Positions 31,222-48,908 of a stretch of DNA of 64,000 nt are shown here, piece after piece. Under the pieces are notes generated by a model. The model worked only from the letters and a program-made list of their open reading frames with translations. It made no database searches and was not told the DNA's origin. The position numbers and the translations under genes were made by a program. Position 1 is the stretch's first letter; each line of letters starts with the position of its first letter. The stretch comes from Escherichia coli (GTDB lineage Bacteria > Pseudomonadota > Gammaproteobacteria > Enterobacterales > Enterobacteriaceae), in NCBI RefSeq assembly GCF_003334305.1, contig NZ_QOWS01000005.1. One strand, given 5' to 3'.

Positions 31222-32175
31222 ATGACAATCAACGATTCGGCAATTTCAGAACAGGGAATGTGTGAAGAAGAACAGGTCGCGCGGATCGCGTGGTTTTACT
31301 ATCACGACGGGCTGACCCAGAGCGAGATCAGCGATCGTCTCGGCCTGACCCGTTTGAAAGTGTCGCGCTTGCTGGAGAAAGGGCATCAGTCCGGCATTAT
31401 TCGCGTACAGATTAATTCTCGCTTTGAAGGCTGTCTGGAATATGAAACTCAATTACGTCGTCAGTTTTCGCTGCAACATGTCCGGGTGATCCCTGGGCTT
31501 GCGGATGCTGATGTCGGCGGGCGACTGGGGATAGGCGCGGCGCATATGTTGATGAGTTTACTTCAACCACAACAGATGCTGGCGATTGGTTTTGGCGAGG
31601 CAACCATGAATACGCTGCAACGCTTAAGTGGTTTTATTTCGTCACAGCAAATTCGCCTGGTCACGCTCTCCGGTGGCGTCGGTTCTTATATGACGGGTAT
31701 CGGGCAGCTTAACGCGGCGTGCAGTGTGAATATTATTCCGGCTCCGTTGCGGGCATCCTCCGCTGACATTGCCCGTACGCTAAAAAATGAAAATTGCGTC
31801 AAAGATGTTCTGTTAGCCGCGCAAGCAGCCGATGTGGCGATTGTCGGCATTGGGGCCGTCAGTCAACAGGACGACGCGACGATCATTCGCTCCGGTTATA
31901 TCAGCCAGGGCGAACAGTTAATGATTGGTCGAAAAGGGGCGGTTGGCGACATTTTAGGCTACTTTTTTGATGCAAAAGGTGACGTTGTCACGGATATTAA
32001 AATACATAACGAACTGATTGGCTTACCTTTAAGCTCGCTGAAGACCATACCCGTCCGGGTTGGCGTGGCAGGGGGAGAAAATAAAGCCGAAGCAATTGCC
32101 GCTGCAATGAAAGGCGGTTATATCAACGCACTGGTTACCGATCAGGACACAGCAGCGGCGATTTTACGTAGTTAA
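31222..32175 (+). CDS. lsrR: lsr operon repressor LsrR (317 aa, SorC/DeoR family)
   Basis: N-terminal HTH then sugar-phosphate-binding domain; divergent from lsrA. Confidence 0.9.
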
Positions 32176-32253: not shown

Positions 32254-33846
32254 ATGGCTCGACTCTTTACCCCTTCAGAATCAAAGTATTACCTGATGGC
32301 GCTGGATGCAGGTACCGGAAGTATTCGGGCTGTGATATTCGACCTGGAAGGCAATCAAATAGCAGTGGGACAGGCGGAGTGGCGGCACCTGGCAGTACCG
32401 GACGTTCCTGGTTCTATGGAATTTGATCTCAACAAAAACTGGCAACTGGCGTGTGAGTGTATGCGCCAGGCGCTGCACAACGCCGGCATAGCCCCGGAGT
32501 ATATCGCTGCCGTTTCGGCATGTTCGATGCGTGAAGGCATTGTTTTATATAATAATGAAGGAGCCCCGATCTGGGCCTGCGCCAATGTGGATGCCAGAGC
32601 GGCACGCGAAGTTAGCGAACTTAAAGAACTGCACAACAATACCTTTGAAAACGAAGTTTATCGCGCGACCGGACAAACACTGGCTTTAAGTGCCATCCCC
32701 AGATTACTTTGGCTGGCGCACCATCGTTCCGATATTTACCGTCAGGCATCAACCATCACCATGATCAGCGACTGGCTGGCCTATATGCTCAGCGGCGAAC
32801 TGGCGGTGGATCCCTCTAACGCTGGCACCACGGGACTTCTTGATCTAACCACCCGTGACTGGAAACCTGCATTGCTGGATATGGCTGGCCTGCGTGCCGA
32901 TATTCTTTCTCCTGTCAAAGAAACCGGCACATTGCTGGGCGTGGTAAGTTCACAAGCGGCGGAACTCTGCGGTCTGAAGGCGGGCACTCCGGTGGTCGTT
33001 GGAGGAGGCGACGTGCAGCTTGGTTGCCTTGGGTTAGGCGTTGTGCGTCCGGCACAAACCGCGGTTCTTGGCGGCACATTCTGGCAGCAAGTTGTAAATT
33101 TAGCCGCGCCGGTGACAGACCCAGAAATGAACGTGCGCGTTAATCCTCATGTTATTCCTGGCATGGTACAAGCTGAATCTATAAGCTTTTTTACCGGACT
33201 CACCATGCGCTGGTTCCGCGATGCTTTCTGTGCCGAAGAAAAACTGATTGCCGAACGTTTAGGCATCGACACCTATACGCTGCTGGAAGAGATGGCCAGT
33301 CGGGTGCCGCCTGGGTCGTGGGGCGTAATGCCGATCTTCTCCGACAGAATGCGCTTTAAAACCTGGTATCACGCTGCGCCTTCCTTTATTAACTTGTCCA
33401 TTGAGCCGGATAAATGTAACAAAGCGACATTGTTCCGTGCGCTGGAAGAAAATGCGGCGATTGTATCAGCGTGTAACTTGCAGCAAATTGCTGATTTCTC
33501 GAATATTCATCCTTCATCGTTAGTCTTTGCAGGCGGAGGTTCAAAAGGGAAATTATGGAGTCAAATTCTCGCTGATGTCTCGGGATTACCCGTCAATATT
33601 CCGGTGGTCAAAGAAGCCACTGCATTAGGATGTGCCATTGCAGCTGGCGTCGGTGCCGGAATTTTTTCATCAATGGCAGAAACCGGAGAACGCCTGGTTC
33701 GCTGGGAACGGACGCACACACCAGACCCGGAAAAGCATGAACTTTATCAGGATTCACGCGATAAGTGGCAGGCAGTTTATCAGGATCAGCTGGGGCTGGT
33801 TGATCATGGACTGACGACGTCGTTATGGAAAGCGCCTGGGTTATAG
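32254..33846 (+). CDS. lsrK: Autoinducer-2 kinase LsrK (530 aa, FGGY kinase family)
   Basis: FGGY carbohydrate kinase motifs ([15 protein letters not shown]). Confidence 0.9.
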
Positions 33847-33855
33847 TTTCATTGA

Positions 33856-33890
33856 CAGCCACATCATGATGACCGTGGCTGTTAGTTTTT
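33856..33890 (+). terminator. Intrinsic terminator after lsrK
   Basis: Stem cagccac / gtggctg followed by ttagttttt. Confidence 0.5.
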
Positions 33891-34376
33891 GAGTATAGTT
33901 ATTCTTATTTCCCTTCTTTTAGAGCTGGCTTGTTAAAAGCCAGCTTGCAGATTCATCGTTCCATCACCAGTACTATATTCAAGGGAAAATTGCTATTTTT
34001 CTTAAAGCATTAAGCACAACCCTTATTTTATAGCGAATATTCCTAAAGACACTAATGGATGCAAAAGGGGTTTAATAAACTTCGATTTTTAGCAATTAGT
34101 GCTATTCTTTGTTAAATATGATGATGATAATTTTCCTATTGAAAGAAACAGTTTTCTTATTAATCAACAATAACTCATAGTTCATTTTTAAATAAAATAA
34201 GAACTATGCATTTTTTAATCTATCAATTCGAAAGTATTAGCAAATTAGCCAAATTGACACCTTCCCACCTCCAACTAACACTCAATACAGACCTCTGACA
34301 ATTTAATAAGTTTCATTTTTAATGTCTGACGACTCATCTCTTTCGTGGCTGTATTGTTTGTATATGGAGCGTTTAT

Positions 34377-37300
34377 ATGAATAGAATCTATCGCGTGATA
34401 TGGAATTGCACTCTACAGGTATTTCAGGCCTGCTCGGAATTAACTCGCAGGGCAGGTAAAACATCGACGGTTAATTTGCGTAAATCCTCTGGACTGACAA
34501 CGAAATTCAGTAGATTGACGCTGGGTGTTTTGCTGGCACTAAGCGGTTCAGCGTCTGGTGCAAGTCTGGAAGTTGATAATGATCAGATTACCAATATTGA
34601 TACTGATGTTGCTTATGATGCCTACCTGGTTGGCTGGTATGGCACTGGAGTGCTTAATATTTTGGCTGGCGGTAATGCCTCCTTAACCACTATTACTACC
34701 AGCGTCATTGGCGCTAATGAGGACTCAGAGGGCACCGTTAATGTTTTGGGTGGCACCTGGCGATTGTATGATAGCGGAAATAATGCAAGGCCTTTAAATG
34801 TGGGTCAATCCGGAACGGGGACGCTGAATATTAAACAGAAAGGTCACGTTGATGGAGGCTATTTAAGACTAGGTTCCTCGACAGGAGGCGTCGGGACGGT
34901 CAATGTTGAGGGAGAGGACTCTGTTCTGACGACCGAATTATTCGAAATAGGGAGTTACGGTACGGGATCATTAAATATTACGGATAAGGGTTACGTCACG
35001 AGTTCAATAGTCGCCATTTTAGGCTATCAGGCGGGCAGTAATGGCCAGGTTGTCGTTGAAAAGGGCGGTGAGTGGCTAATAAAAAATAACGATTCCTCAA
35101 TTGAATTTCAAATTGGTAATCAAGGAACTGGGGAAGCGACTATTCGCGAGGGTGGACTGATTACGGCTGAAAACACGATTATCGGTGGCAATGCTACCGG
35201 TATCGGAACCCTGAATGTGCAGGATCAAGACTCTGTCATCACGGTACGCAGACTCTATAATGGATATTTCGGTAATGGCACACTCAATATTTCCAATAAT
35301 GGACTAATTAATAACAAAGAATATTCATTAGTGGGCGTTCAGGACGGTTCCCACGGTGTCGTCAACGTGACCGATAAAGGGCATTGGAATTTCCTCGGAA
35401 CGGGCGAAGCTTTCCGCTATATCTATATCGGTGATGCTGGCGACGGTGAACTTAATGTCTCGCGTGAAGGTAAAGTAGATTCGGGAATTATCACTGCGGG
35501 GATGAAAGAAACAGGCACAGGCAACATTACTGTTAAGGATAAGAACTCCGTTATCACTAATCTCGGAACTAATCTTGGTTATGACGGCCACGGCGAAATG
35601 AATATCAGTAATGAAGGGCTTGTTGTCAGCAACGGAGGAAGCTCACTCGGTTATGGAGAAACCGGCGTCGGGAATGTCAGCATCACCACGGGGGGGATGT
35701 GGGAGGTCAATAAGAATGTCTATACCACCATTGGTGTTGCGGGCGTCGGAAACCTCAATATTAGCGATGGCGGTAAGTTCGTATCGCAAAATATTACTTT
35801 TTTGGGCGATAAAGCAAGCGGTATCGGCACACTGAACCTGATGGATGCGACATCATCGTTCGATACTGTGGGTATCAATGTCGGTAATTTTGGTAGCGGT
35901 ATCGTAAATGTCAGTAATGGTGCCACCCTTAATTCAACGGGCTATGGATTTATCGGAGGAAATGCCTCCGGTAAGGGGATAGTTAATATTTCAACGGACA
36001 GTCTCTGGAATTTAAAGACATCATCTACTAACGCACAATTGCTACAGGTCGGTGTATTAGGCAAGGGTGAACTGAATATTACCACCGGAGGTATAGTTAA
36101 AGCGCGTGATACACAGATAGCTCTCAATGACAAAAGTAAGGGCGACGTGAGGGTGGATGGGCAGAACTCTCTTCTTGAAACATTCAATATGTACGTAGGG
36201 ACATCTGGTACGGGTACGTTAACCCTGACGAATAGCGGCACGCTGAATGTCGAAGGTGGAGAAGTTTACTTAGGTGTTTTTGAACCTGCTGTAGGAACGC
36301 TAAACATTGGTGCAGCTCACGGTGAGGCGGCGGCAGATGCCGGGTATATAACCAACGCGACGAAAGTAGAGTTTGGTTCTGGCGAAGGTGTTTTTGTCTT
36401 TAATCATACTAATAACAGTGATGCCGGCTACCAGGTCGATATGCTGATTACAGGTGACGATAAAGACGGAAAAGTGATCCATGATGCAGGCCATACGGTG
36501 TTCAATGCAGGGAATACTTATAGCGGTAAAACGCTGGTCAATGACGGCCTCCTGACCATTGCGTCTCATACGGCAGATGGGGTAACGGGCATGGGTTCGA
36601 GTGAAGTCACCATTGCAAGCCCCGGTACGCTCGACATTCTCGCATCAACGAACAGTGCAGGAGATTACACGCTGACCAATGCGCTCAAAGGCGATGGCTT
36701 GATGCGAGTGCAGCTGTCATCCTACGACAAGATGTTTGGCTTTACCCATGCAACAGGGACTGAATTCGCCGGTGTTGCCCAACTGAAAGACAGTACCTTC
36801 ACTCTGGAACGCGACAACACCGCTGCGCTTACTCACGCGATGTTGCAGTCTGACAGTGAAAATACCACATCGGTAAAAGTGGGAGAGCAATCCATTGGTG
36901 GACTGGCCATGAATGGCGGTACGCTCATTTTCGATACGGATATTCCTGCTGCGACGCTTGCAGAGGGATATATCAGCGTCGATACGCTGGTTGTCGGCGC
37001 GGGTGACTACACCTGGAAAGGCCGTAACTATCAGGTAAACGGGACGGGCGACGTGCTTATCGACGTGCCTAAACCGTGGAATGATCCCATGGCGAATAAC
37101 CCTCTGACGACGCTCAATTTGCTGGAACACGACGATAGCCATGTCGGCGTTCAACTGGTGAAGGCGCAAACGGTTATTGGGTCGGGTGGCTCATTAACGT
37201 TACGTGATTTACAGGGCGACGAGGTGGAAGCGGACAAAACGTTACACATTGCGCAAAACGGAACGGTGGTCGCCGAGGGTGATTATGGATTCCGCCTCAC

Positions 37301-46874: not shown

Positions 46875-46887
46875 GGAACAATAGATT

Positions 46888-47418
46888 ATGAAATACAATA
46901 ACGTTATTTTCCTCGGTTTATGTCTGGGGTTAACCACCTATTCTGCTTTATCCGCAGATAGCGTTATTAAAATTAGCGGGCGCGTCCTCGATTATGGCTG
47001 CACAGTCTCATCGGATTCGCTTAATTTTACCGTAGATCTCCAAAAAAACAGTGCCAGACAATTTCCAACGACCGGTAGCACAAGTCCAGCCGTCCCTTTT
47101 CAGATTACGTTAAGTGAATGCAGCAAAGGGACAACGGGGGTTCGGGTTGCATTTAACGGTATTGAGGATGCAGAAAATAATACTCTGTTGAAACTGGATG
47201 AGGGAAGCAATACGGCCTCCGGTTTAGGTATAGAAATACTGGACGGAAATATGCGTCCGGTGAAACTGAATGACCTTCATGCCGGGATGCAGTGGATCCC
47301 ACTGGTACCAGAACAGAACAATATTTTGCCTTACTCCGCTCGTCTGAAGTCAACTCAGAAGTCCGTCAATCCGGGACTGGTGAGGGCTTCGGCAACCTTT
47401 ACCCTTGAATTTCAATAA
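46888..47418 (+). CDS. ydeS: Fimbrial minor subunit (FimF-like, 176 aa)
   Basis: Signal peptide, pilin fold, conserved Cys pair. Confidence 0.8.
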   Translation: MKYNNVIFLGLCLGLTTYSALSADSVIKISGRVLDYGCTVSSDSLNFTVDLQKNSARQFPTTGSTSPAVPFQITLSECSKGTTGVRVAFNGIEDAENNTLLKLDEGSNTASGLGIEILDGNMRPVKLNDLHAGMQWIPLVPEQNNILPYSARLKSTQKSVNPGLVRASATFTLEFQ

Positions 47419-47430
47419 TCAGAGTCAGAT

Positions 47431-47934
47431 ATGAAAAGACTTCACAAGAGGTTCCTGTTAGCTACGTTTTGCGCGTTATTCACAGCAACTCTCCAGGCCG
47501 CCGATGTCACTATCACTGTTAATGGTCGGGTAGTCGCTAAACCCTGCACTATTCAAACCAAAGAAGCTAACGTTAATCTCGGGGATCTTTATACGCGCAA
47601 TCTGCAACAACCTGGTTCTGCATCTGGCTGGCACAATATTACTTTGTCATTAACCGATTGTCCGGTTGAAACAAGTGCAGTGACGGCAATCGTGACAGGT
47701 TCAACTGACAATACGGGTTATTACAAAAATGAAGGTACTGCCGAAAATATTCAGATAGAGCTGAGGGATGACCAGGATGCGACGTTAAAAAATGGCGATA
47801 GCAAAACGGTTATTGTTGATGAGATCACTCGTAATGCACAGTTTCCACTTAAGGCAAGAGCTATCACGGTGAATGGAAACGCAAGCCAGGGAACGATCGA
47901 GGCGCTAATCAATGTGATCTACACCTGGCAATAA
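47431..47934 (+). CDS. ydeR: Fimbrial minor subunit (FimG-like, 167 aa)
   Basis: Signal peptide, pilin fold, conserved Cys pair. Confidence 0.8.
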   Translation: MKRLHKRFLLATFCALFTATLQAADVTITVNGRVVAKPCTIQTKEANVNLGDLYTRNLQQPGSASGWHNITLSLTDCPVETSAVTAIVTGSTDNTGYYKNEGTAENIQIELRDDQDATLKNGDSKTVIVDEITRNAQFPLKARAITVNGNASQGTIEALINVIYTWQ

Positions 47935-47993
47935 CGTCGATTCGATTTTCTTAGCCTTCTTTTTAAATCAATTTTTTAACCTTAGGATATATC

Positions 47994-48908
47994 ATGGGTA
48001 AAACAATCAGTATAAAGGTCCTGTTCGGTATTTATCTTCTATTAATGGCAGGTAAAGTTTTTGCCTTCAGTTGTAATGTCGATGGCGGGTCAAGTATTGG
48101 AGCTGGTACAACCTCTGTTTATGTTAATCTCGACCCTGTAATACAGCCGGGCCAGAATCTGGTTGTAGACTTGTCTCAGCATATAAGTTGCTGGAATGAT
48201 TACGGCGGCTGGTACGACACTGATCATATAAACCTGGTACAAGGCTCAGCTTTCGCAGGCTCTCTACAGTCATATAAAGGATCGCTGTACTGGAATAATG
48301 TGACCTACCCCTTCCCGTTGACGACAAATACCAACGTATTGGATATTGGTGATAAGACACCGATGCCATTACCGTTAAAACTCTATATTACCCCAGTCGG
48401 GGCGGCCGGTGGAGTTGTCATAAAAGCCGGGGAAGTTATTGCCCGTATTCATATGTATAAAATTGCAACATTAGGAAGCGGAAATCCGCGTAATTTTACG
48501 TGGAATATTATTTCAAATAACAGTGTTGTTATGCCAACAGGCGGCTGCACTGTTGATAGTCGTAATGTCACCGTGGATCTCCCGGACTTTCCTGGAAGCG
48601 CAGAAATACCCCTTGGCGTATATTGCTCAAGCGAACAAAAGCTCTCATTTTATCTTTCGGGTGCCACCACTGACAGTGCCCGACAAGTGTTTGCTAACAC
48701 AGCACCTGATGCAACAAAAGCATCGGGAGTGGGTGTCTCTCTGATGCGTAATGGAAAAATACTGGCTACGGGAGAAAATGTCTCCCTGGGAACAGTAAAT
48801 AAAAGCAAAGTACCTCTGGGTTTAAGCGCAACCTATGGACAAACAGGAAACAAGGTTTCAGCCGGAACCGTCCAGTCAGTCATTGGTGTCACTTTTATCT
48901 ATGAATAA
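47994..48908 (+). CDS. ydeQ: Two-domain FimH-like tip adhesin (304 aa)
   Basis: Signal peptide, N-terminal lectin-like domain with Cys pair, C-terminal pilin domain; last gene of the operon. Confidence 0.8.

Follow-up and report, generated by a model that had tools for sequence, protein, structure and literature searches.

The window analysed here is a 64,000-nucleotide stretch of Escherichia coli DNA (contig NZ_QOWS01000005.1). Between lsrK and hipB, the ORF listing contains a single forward-strand ORF that begins with ATG and encodes 1806 amino acids; no other ORF of that size is nearby. An ORF of 5.4 kb cannot have arisen by chance. The protein matched the NCBIfam model for ECSE_1600 family autotransporters (NF011422) from residue 1 to residue 1806 of 1806 and scored 4188.7 bits, where the cut-off is 2335. 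The intact, uninterrupted ORF reported in a preliminary description of this DNA is thus confirmed. Coordinates of the gene, its domains and its surroundings are listed in Table 1.

Table 1. Features of the autotransporter locus, numbered from the first nucleotide of the window.
Feature	Position	Strand	Details
lsrR	31222-32175		neighbour, upstream side
lsrK	32254-33846		neighbour, upstream side
lsrK-autotransporter intergenic region	33847..34376	+	AT-rich, 33% G+C in 34000-34499
Autotransporter CDS, 1806 codons, uninterrupted	34377..39797	+	ECSE_1600 family, type Va by architecture; orthologue of K-12 pseudogene yneO (ydeK+ydeU)
Extended signal peptide region (ESPR), aa 1-47	34377..34517	+	Pfam PF13018, E=1.2e-14
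Passenger domain, aa about 62-1331	34560..38369	+	TIGR04393 and TIGR02601 repeats, PATR, AlphaFold2
G7 run (Gly-Gly codons 438-440 region)	35690..35696	+	allele-specific; K-12 has a G7 instead at gene nt 774
Tract 1, G8 (GTG GGG GGG GAA, V1277-G-G-E1280), in frame	38207..38214	+	+1/-1 frameshifts recur at this site across E. coli
Tract 2, G7 (CCT GGG GGG GCA), in frame	38331..38337	+	G8 in K-12, its only frame-breaking lesion
Autochaperone / pertactin-like junction, aa 1332-1452	38370..38732	+	Pfam AC_1, Pertactin
Outer-membrane β-barrel translocator, aa 1525-1784	38949..39728	+	Pfam PF03797, E=3.5e-42
hipB (40006-40272), hipA (40272-41594)	40006..41594	+	downstream neighbours; context, outside the autotransporter

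The proteins encoded by the flanking genes lsrR, lsrK, hipB and hipA are 98-99.6% identical to those of K-12 (86 of 88 residues for HipB and 432 of 440 for HipA). The order lsrK-autotransporter-hipB-hipA is shared by the window, K-12, O157, LSC52 and N273, and the autotransporter gene also adjoins hipBA on the contig of a divergent orthologue. The preliminary description took the adjacent hipBA module and lsr operon to be unchanged. These flanks are conserved, but the wider neighbourhood differs; 3.3 kb of fimbrial genes, located just past hipA in the window, are deleted in K-12.

A GGAG Shine-Dalgarno sequence is located at positions 34366-34369 and the promoter presumably lies within the intergenic region. 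Our consensus scan found no σ70-like site upstream of the ATG, a scan for promoters and terminators returned no more sites than were found in shuffled sequence, and an Rfam scan of positions 33000-42500 identified no family. From the AT content of the region, we infer that H-NS may silence the gene. With AT-rich DNA upstream and no consensus σ70 promoter, the gene may not be expressed under laboratory conditions.

The encoded protein has the extended signal peptide, long passenger and C-terminal barrel attributed to it previously; Pfam recognised the ESPR and the autotransporter β-domain, and the passenger is filled with repeats. A hydrophobic core (residues 46-60) follows the ESPR and, as judged by eye, a putative signal peptidase site is probably situated near residues 60-62 (ASGA/S). 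Some database names call the protein a lipoprotein. The label appears spurious; by eye, the mature N-terminus has no lipobox. Repeats of the TIGR04393 (T5SS/PEP-CTERM-type) model occur in nine stretches of the passenger, alongside TIGR02601 repeats and PATR repeats recognised by Pfam. Profile scans detected no catalytic domain in the passenger. The junction contains an AC_1 autochaperone (residues 1332-1438, E=3.9e-26) and a Pertactin match (residues 1335-1452, E=1.8e-10), and resembles the IcsA autochaperone structures 3ml3 and 5ke1. TIGR01414 spans residues 1346-1806 (406.6 bits), and the barrel with its linker extends to residue 1806.

The AlphaFold2 model of residues 62-1261 is all β; pLDDT exceeds 90 across the first ~660 residues, and the model is poor in the central passenger (residues ~850-1020). 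The top PDB fold matches of the modelled passenger were Ag43 and TibA (4kh3, 7koh, 7kob and 4q1q; probability 1.00). The passenger is thus modelled as a long right-handed β-helix or β-solenoid. Pfam, TIGR01414 and AlphaFold2 together identify an ESPR signal peptide, a C-terminal barrel on the same chain, and a β-helical passenger with an autochaperone. By its architecture, the protein is a classical type Va autotransporter, and surface display is predicted.

The locus is well represented in sequence databases. In E. coli genomes, PGAP names the matching gene 'ECSE_1600 family autotransporter', and the locus bears this annotation in 5341 of the 5426 genomes with any match. The family takes its name from the locus tag ECSE_1600. 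In the SE11 genome paper of 2008, the 1806-residue gene was listed as uninterrupted in SE11 and HS and as broken in MG1655, E24377A and O157 Sakai, whereas phylogroup B2 lacked it (PMC2608844). Hence, the gene and the family name were already on record, as were the intact copies of many strains and the disrupted copy of K-12, and the contrast between an intact copy and K-12 had been published (PMC2608844). Nor is an intact copy rare, as had been implied; the identical 1806-residue protein is encoded on at least 1000 public contigs. We found no experimental characterisation of yneO, ydeK, ydeU or ECSE_1600 in the searchable literature. Other mentions of the locus are incidental, and concern IS2 insertions in long-term cultures and a large indel in a chemostat.

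In K-12, the gene had been described as only fragments, a pseudogene remnant. There is a pseudogene at the same locus, but the K-12 gene is whole. MG1655 yneO (b4696) is 5,422 bp long, compared with 5,421 bp in the window, and occupies the same place between lsrK and hipB. Over 5.4 kb, the two sequences are 98.9% identical and differ by 60 substitutions and one indel. Alignment to K-12, put forward in the preliminary description for mapping lesions, thus revealed one frame-breaking lesion, an extra G at tract 2 (G8 rather than G7). The K-12 frame shifts at codon ~1320 and meets a stop at codon 1326, ahead of the autochaperone and barrel. The annotated genes ydeK (b1510, 1325 aa) and ydeU (b1509) are the reading-frame halves that flank the frameshift. 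Because the 1325-residue product would lack both the autochaperone and the barrel, it could not, from its predicted domain content, cross the outer membrane. Removing the extra G from the K-12 gene restores 1806 codons, with 12 amino acid differences from the window protein. K-12 yneO is therefore one base short of a complete 1806-residue surface protein. It should be trivial to repair for experiments on function, and large cultures are expected to contain rare revertants.

Of complete E. coli genomes, about 73% carry the gene, with query coverage of at least 80% in 3953 genomes, and the clusters of 1806-residue proteins have 18,868 and 5,726 members. Our genome search found phylogroup B2 strains to be without the gene, in agreement with the SE11 study (PMC2608844). 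Outside phylogroup B2, few E. coli autotransporters are as large and as widespread. In 9 of 13 sampled complete genomes, the gene was pseudogenised by independent lesions. These differ by lineage and include poly-G slippage, an 8-bp duplication, IS5 and deletions. Pseudogenisation at this frequency points to weak or niche-specific selection for the gene. For the O157 lineage, we considered a loss of one G from tract 1, as seen in strain Z1615. This was rejected because tract 1 is G8 in EDL933; the lesion, located in EDL933, is an 8-bp duplication at gene nucleotide 3983, and the G7 of Z1615 is secondary. The protein clusters also contain many in-frame shorter variants of 1440-1714 residues. 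There are no DNA direct repeats within the gene, so recombination between long repeats is not the source of these variants.

The recurrent lesions could mean that the ORF is a neutral relic with no current function, decaying species-wide, and that its frame survives here only because no lesion has yet struck this lineage. The 9 of 13 broken copies, the B2 strains without the gene and the failure to find a promoter consensus upstream are all in keeping with such a history. However, at the level of codon substitutions, intact alleles are shown to be under purifying selection; dN/dS was 0.085 between the window allele and the repaired K-12 allele, which differ by 60 substitutions. Every orthologue at 84-87% identity has a length of exactly 1806 residues; identity is 93-95% in the barrel and 75-79% in the N-terminal passenger. 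A neutral ORF of 5.4 kb would not last through such divergence, and exactly 1806 codons are kept in orthologues at only 84% nucleotide identity. Furthermore, the in-frame G8 is by far the most frequent state of tract 1. We therefore regard a neutral relic as very unlikely. It is exceedingly improbable that the gene is truly frameshifted and that a homopolymer miscall has mimicked an intact frame. Runs of G7 and G8 are error-prone in long-read assemblies, and some complete genomes have suspicious double aberrations. Conversely, at least 1000 independent contigs encode exactly this 1806-residue translation, the 6-kb region has a 100% identical counterpart in another complete genome (strain A7), and an error would need to restore the frame exactly.

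The feature is, very probably, an intact allele of a chromosomal ECSE_1600-family autotransporter, the yneO of K-12, and a putative adhesin. A role in adhesion or aggregation is a reasonable inference from homology, fold and purifying selection. By the established type Va pathway, the ESPR-type signal peptide would direct export through Sec, and the C-terminal ~280 residues would be assembled as a β-barrel in the outer membrane via BAM. The passenger would then be threaded outward, C-terminus first, with the autochaperone (residues ~1332-1450) nucleating its folding. The product would be a surface-retained β-helix of more than 1200 residues with no enzymatic domain, most likely serving adhesion, aggregation or biofilm formation.

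Three G or C runs of at least 7 bases occur in the 64-kb window and all are inside the autotransporter gene. Tract 1 varies in length among complete genomes and draft assemblies, and its length sets the frame. By exact match, complete genomes had G8 in 2656 cases, G7 in 374 and G9 in 437; counts made at an identity of at least 99% contain as many as 81 (tract 1) or 6 (tract 2) matches that are 100% identical but partial, and exact counts are slightly lower. In draft WGS assemblies, G9 was found at tract 1 on at least two haplotypes. Every +1 and -1 product predicted for two allele backgrounds is present in public assemblies. Thus, a truncated product of 1289 residues occurs on at least 1000 and on 155 contigs, and one of 1302 residues on 716 and on 61 contigs, numbers that are inflated by clonal structure.

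These observations, and the position of the K-12 lesion in a G run, would suit a contingency locus, in which slipped-strand events at poly-G runs reversibly switch an adhesin ON, as in the window, or OFF, as in K-12. There is precedent in Bordetella pertussis, where the autotransporter genes bapC and tcfA have phase-variable coding G8-G11 runs, changes in run length shift the frame, and mixed alleles (G9-G12) are found within single colonies (PMC1891110). The likeness lies in coding poly-G runs that alter the frame of an autotransporter gene. The runs described here have fewer bases (G7-G8), lack conservation between alleles and seem stable within a clone. Our literature search for poly-G or slipped-strand phase variation in E. 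coli autotransporters gave only papers on other genera.

Several results count against such switching, and we consider it unlikely. Some E. coli alleles, including those of LSC52 and RM9872, have an interruption in tract 1 (GGGTGGTG), and an orthologue with 84% identity lacks any G run of at least 7. Run length is fairly constant within clones, as expected for the ordinary rate of homopolymer slippage. O157/O55-type genomes, in which the 8-bp duplication has already killed the gene, had about 283 G8 and at most 26 G7 at tract 1, and K-12 derivatives had 383-389 G8 and about 5 G9 at tract 2; in both sets, sequencing error and real change are inseparable. Two aberrant runs occur in each of CREC-532, EC590 and E308, and some off-frame calls are probably long-read errors. 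Many lesions are irreversible (IS5, deletions and the duplication). The 20-23% of off-frame calls at tract 1, taken at face value as evidence for phase variation, are weakened by the clone-level controls, the double-aberrant assemblies and the non-conservation of the run.

The clone-level controls suggest that tract 1 is a hot spot of ordinary slippage, not a fast phase switch. That the poly-G runs, the G8 at 38207-38214 foremost, make the gene a slow, reversible contingency adhesin, with the intact and pseudogene states, yneO included, as its phases, is improbable. If true, this would be the first slipped-strand switch described in an E. coli autotransporter, and the pseudogene states would not be permanent losses. 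Irrespective of mechanism, the G8 run is a hot spot both for real mutation and for sequencing error. The scoring of this gene as present, absent or pseudogenised, by annotation pipelines and in pan-genome studies, hinges largely on the length of that one run.

We compared the protein with known autotransporters. Antigen 43 and TibA share a long three-faced β-helix with the passenger at the level of fold only. Identity is 11-15%, TM-scores on the query are 0.14-0.21 (low since the lengths differ), and the repeats are of another type, TIGR04393/PATR being found here. The AIDA-type repeat of ~19 residues (PF16168) had no match in either Pfam scan of the protein. We know of no Dam/OxyR control region at the present gene, as there is for Antigen 43. 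The translocators of Salmonella MisL and ShdA, and of E. coli YfaL/EhaC, are homologous, with model scores of 467, 210 and 196 bits (MisL, ShdA and YfaL, respectively). The matches are confined to the last 330-500 residues, the passengers differ and the scores are far below the cut-offs of 1297, 2249 and 1459, which places the protein outside these families. The translocator and junction (residues 1345-1806) match the AIDA-I structure 4mee (E=6e-87), from E. coli 2787. Both proteins are classical autotransporters of the AIDA-I type, with a β-helix passenger. However, the AIDA-I model NF033176 scored 338.3 bits, below its cut-off of 1200, and covered residues 1071-1805 only; the present passenger is unrelated in sequence and no glycosyltransferase gene adjoins it. 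The counterpart that agrees in family, length (1806 residues) and architecture is ECSE_1600 of E. coli SE11, of which the present gene is another allele.

The preliminary description proposed an intact 1806-aa type Va autotransporter. The ORF listing and Pfam domains confirm the reading frame, and the ESPR, AC_1 autochaperone and C-terminal beta-domain bear out the assignment to type Va. NCBIfam model NF011422 covers the protein from residues 1 to 1806 (4188.7 bits; cut-off 2335). The gene is flanked by lsrR and lsrK on the 5' side and by hipB and hipA on the 3' side. The 530-bp 5' region is AT-rich (33% G+C at 34000-34499). A promoter scan found no consensus σ70 site in this region, and there was no Rfam match. 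Silencing of the gene by H-NS, which the preliminary description put forward, is plausible.

The same position in K-12 MG1655 is occupied by pseudogene yneO (b4696), as had been claimed. Conversely, K-12 was said to carry only a remnant or fragments. In fact, the whole gene is present (5,422 bp, compared with 5,421 bp in the window) with a single frameshift. The proposed alignment of the two loci was done; it contains 60 substitutions and one indel, a run of G8 in K-12 and G7 in the window at 38331-38337 (tract 2). With one G deleted, the K-12 gene again has 1806 codons, and its product differs from that of the window allele at 12 amino acids. The first K-12 frame ends at codon 1326 and is the old ydeK (1325 aa); the remainder, open in the +1 frame, is the old ydeU. 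Passage of a passenger across the outer membrane needs the barrel. Because the K-12 break lies just N-terminal to the autochaperone and barrel, we infer that the yneO product would be unable to make this crossing.

The substitutions are unevenly spread: 55 of the 60 fall in gene nt 465-2586 (window 34841-36962) and 5 in the final 2.8 kb (36963-39797). In the composition profile, G+C rises from ~46% at 34500-36500 to ~53% at 36500-39500. The gene looks mosaic, or the N-terminal passenger may be diverging or recombining faster. A second K-12 lesion adjoins yneO; 3,278 bp of the window (42370-45647) are missing. The window carries a complete chaperone-usher fimbrial operon (context 42499-48908), of which only yneL', the usher fragment ydeT, ydeS and ydeR remain in K-12.

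Features of the autotransporter gene and fimbrial operon in the window, and lesions of the autotransporter gene in other E. coli (tract 1, G run at 38207-38214; aa, residues of the protein; nt, positions in the gene)
Feature	Position	Strand	Nature or evidence
Autotransporter CDS	34377..39797	+	ATG start, 1806 codons, ORF listing
GGAG ribosome-binding site	7 nt 5' of ORF	+	sequence
Extended Signal Peptide of type V secretion	aa 1-47		Pfam, E=1.2e-14
PATR repeats			Pfam
AC_1 autochaperone	aa 1332-1438		Pfam, E=3.9e-26
Pertactin-like segment			Pfam
Autotransporter beta-domain	aa 1525-1784		Pfam, E=3.5e-42
FimA-like subunit	42499-43110
Fimbrial chaperone	43462-44181
Usher	44223-46874		883 aa
FimF-like and FimG-like subunits, 304-aa ORF	fimbrial operon
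K-12 lesion	tract 2		+1 G
Evo1 lesion	tract 1		+1 G
O157:H7 EDL933 lesion	nt 3983		8-bp tandem duplication
O157:H7 Z1615 lesion	as EDL933; tract 1		same 8-bp tandem duplication; -1 G in tract 1
RM9872 lesion			4-bp insertion, 247-bp deletion
N273 lesion	5' end		IS5
VE-T10 lesion	5' end		truncation
TW01221 lesion	nt 1451		1-bp deletion
E2865 lesion			233-bp deletion

We inspected the state of the gene in 13 complete E. coli genomes. It is intact in four (LSC52, EC21Z-083, KOr024 and IAL7254) and broken in nine, with differing lesions. Many strains have in-frame, shortened versions (~1440-1714 aa) with internal passenger deletions (database matches P0003-P0120); in P0019 the autochaperone is deleted. 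Direct repeats of ≥18 nt are absent from the DNA of the gene, so simple repeat recombination does not account for the in-frame deletions. Some database proteins of 1924-1975 aa (P0052, P0075, P0069), in which the autotransporter is joined to FGGY kinase (LsrK) or HipA domains, are apparently fusion ORFs from deletions at either gene end. In O157:H7 (Z1615 and EDL933) hipB is absent, and an N-terminally truncated hipA lies directly 3' of the frameshifted autotransporter. LSC52 has a truncated hipA, with a TIR-domain gene and then an ISNCY transposase after it. On its hipBA side, too, the locus varies between strains.

All G/C runs of ≥7 bases in the 64-kb window sit inside the gene, at 35690 (G7), 38207 (G8) and 38331 (G7). 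Similarly, four of the six window G runs of ≥6 bases are in the gene (35690-35696, 38207-38214, 38331-38337 and 38409-38414). In each of the four, GGG-GGG specifies Gly-Gly (4 of 34 Gly-Gly pairs). Tract lengths were counted using short exact-match queries against complete genomes. For tract 1, 2656 genomes have G8, 374 have G7 and 437 have G9, where up to 81 per count are possibly partial hits. For tract 2, 1168 genomes have G7, 389 have G8 (K-12 laboratory derivatives), ~5 have G9 and at most 41 have G6.

As a control for long-read errors, we predicted the truncated +1 and -1 slippage products of the window and K-12 alleles and looked up the exact sequences. Every predicted product is present in public sequences. 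The tract 1 G9 product (1289 aa) is on at least 1000 contigs for the K-12 allele and 155 for the window allele, and the G7 product (1302 aa) on 716 and 61, counts that are swollen by over-represented clones and laboratory strains such as DH5alpha and ER1709 (tract 1 G7). Tract 2 products of the window allele are on 5 (G6) and 3 (G8) contigs. In six draft WGS assemblies with the window-allele G9 product, G9 was verified in the DNA; these drafts are 1-13 substitutions apart, with two tract 2 haplotypes. The presence of the products, and the differences between G9 drafts, therefore indicate that slippage at the poly-G runs is real and has occurred at least eight independent times. Evo1 (NZ_CP101915.1, gene 581-6002) has 0 substitutions relative to K-12, yet it combines G9 in tract 1 with G7 in tract 2, the reverse of the K-12 frameshift arrangement. 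Either Evo1 is a natural close relative of K-12 in which the K-12 lesion never arose, or there were two slippage events, or these are assembly errors.

Such runs could act as a contingency switch for reversible phase variation, and the nearest precedents are Bordetella bapC and tcfA (PMC1891110). We consider this unlikely here. The tract 1 run is not conserved, being GGGTGGTG in some E. coli alleles, and G runs of ≥7 are absent altogether from an 84%-identical orthologue. The runs are also fairly stable inside clones. O157/O55-type genomes have ~283 G8 and at most 26 G7, despite an already dead gene where free drift is expected, and K-12 derivatives have 383-389 G8 and ~5 G9 at tract 2. Many lesions in the gene are irreversible. 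The swollen contig counts, and two aberrant runs apiece in three assemblies, which suggest that part of the complete-genome set contains consensus errors, weigh against a switch too. The locus is best read as an adhesin gene under weak or conditional selection, with an ordinary hot spot of homopolymer slippage.

Some match to the 6-kb region was found in 5341 of 5426 complete E. coli genomes, with ≥80% covered in 3953. PGAP names the gene 'ECSE_1600 family autotransporter' in matching E. coli genomes. By exact lookup, the identical protein is on at least 1000 public contigs as 'MULTISPECIES: ECSE_1600 family autotransporter', and the two largest clusters of 1806-aa proteins comprise 18,868 and 5,726 sequences. 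According to the 2008 paper on the SE11 genome, SE11 and HS have an intact ECSE_1600 (1806 aa), the gene is disrupted in MG1655, E24377A and O157 Sakai, and B2 strains CFT073, UTI89 and 536 lack it (PMC2608844). In our complete-genome search, B2 strains such as Nissle 1917 retain just 146 bp of 3' flank. Given the wide annotation and this published pattern, the content of the finding was already on record; the intact form is common and previously described. The preliminary interpretation holds in that the type Va autotransporter is intact and K-12 has a pseudogene in its place, but not in reducing the full-length K-12 gene, which has a single extra G, to a remnant, nor in any implied rarity of the intact form. 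Only the poly-G frameshift hot spot, which explains much of the intact/pseudogene polymorphism, is mildly new.

Between the window allele and the repaired K-12 allele, dS is 0.037 and dN 0.0032 (dN/dS = 0.085; Nei-Gojobori). Orthologues at 84-87% protein identity, including that of 'Enterobacteriaceae bacterium G50', all have a length of exactly 1806 aa; their barrels are 93-95% identical, compared with 75-79% for the N-terminal passenger. This pattern points to a functional surface protein with the exposed tip diverging fastest. In G50 (JALNTX010000006.1; 86% identical) a small Pmp3-family gene and then hipBA lie downstream, and xanthine-dehydrogenase-type genes replace the lsr operon upstream. 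Another AIDA/pertactin-type autotransporter gene lies 4 kb 3' of the G50 orthologue.

NCBIfam and Pfam scans found no catalytic domain in the 1806-aa protein. Taken with the domain and fold matches, this is consistent with the standard type Va route. Export by Sec would be slowed by the ESPR and followed by barrel insertion. The passenger would then be extruded C-to-N, with nucleation by the autochaperone, and a long beta-helix would be displayed at the surface. The protein most probably serves in adhesion, aggregation or biofilm formation; our literature search found no experimental paper on it. An AlphaFold2 model of aa 62-1261, from a 24-sequence alignment, has a mean pLDDT of 78. Short strands at regular intervals make up the whole of the first ~660 residues (pLDDT >90); the model is poor at residues ~850-1020. 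A search of 1.84 billion representatives gave 3445 relatives of the N-terminal passenger at E≤1e-3, and outside the family the nearest share only 30-43% identity with it.

The modelled passenger resembles the fold of Ag43 (4kh3, 7koh, 7ko9, 7kob) and TibA (4q1q), the only significant Foldseek matches in the PDB. The junction aligns with the IcsA autochaperone, and the last 460 residues match the structure of the AIDA-I translocator (E=6e-87). In profile searches, likeness to AIDA-I, MisL, ShdA and YfaL/EhaC is confined to the C-terminal translocator, with scores far under the model cut-offs.
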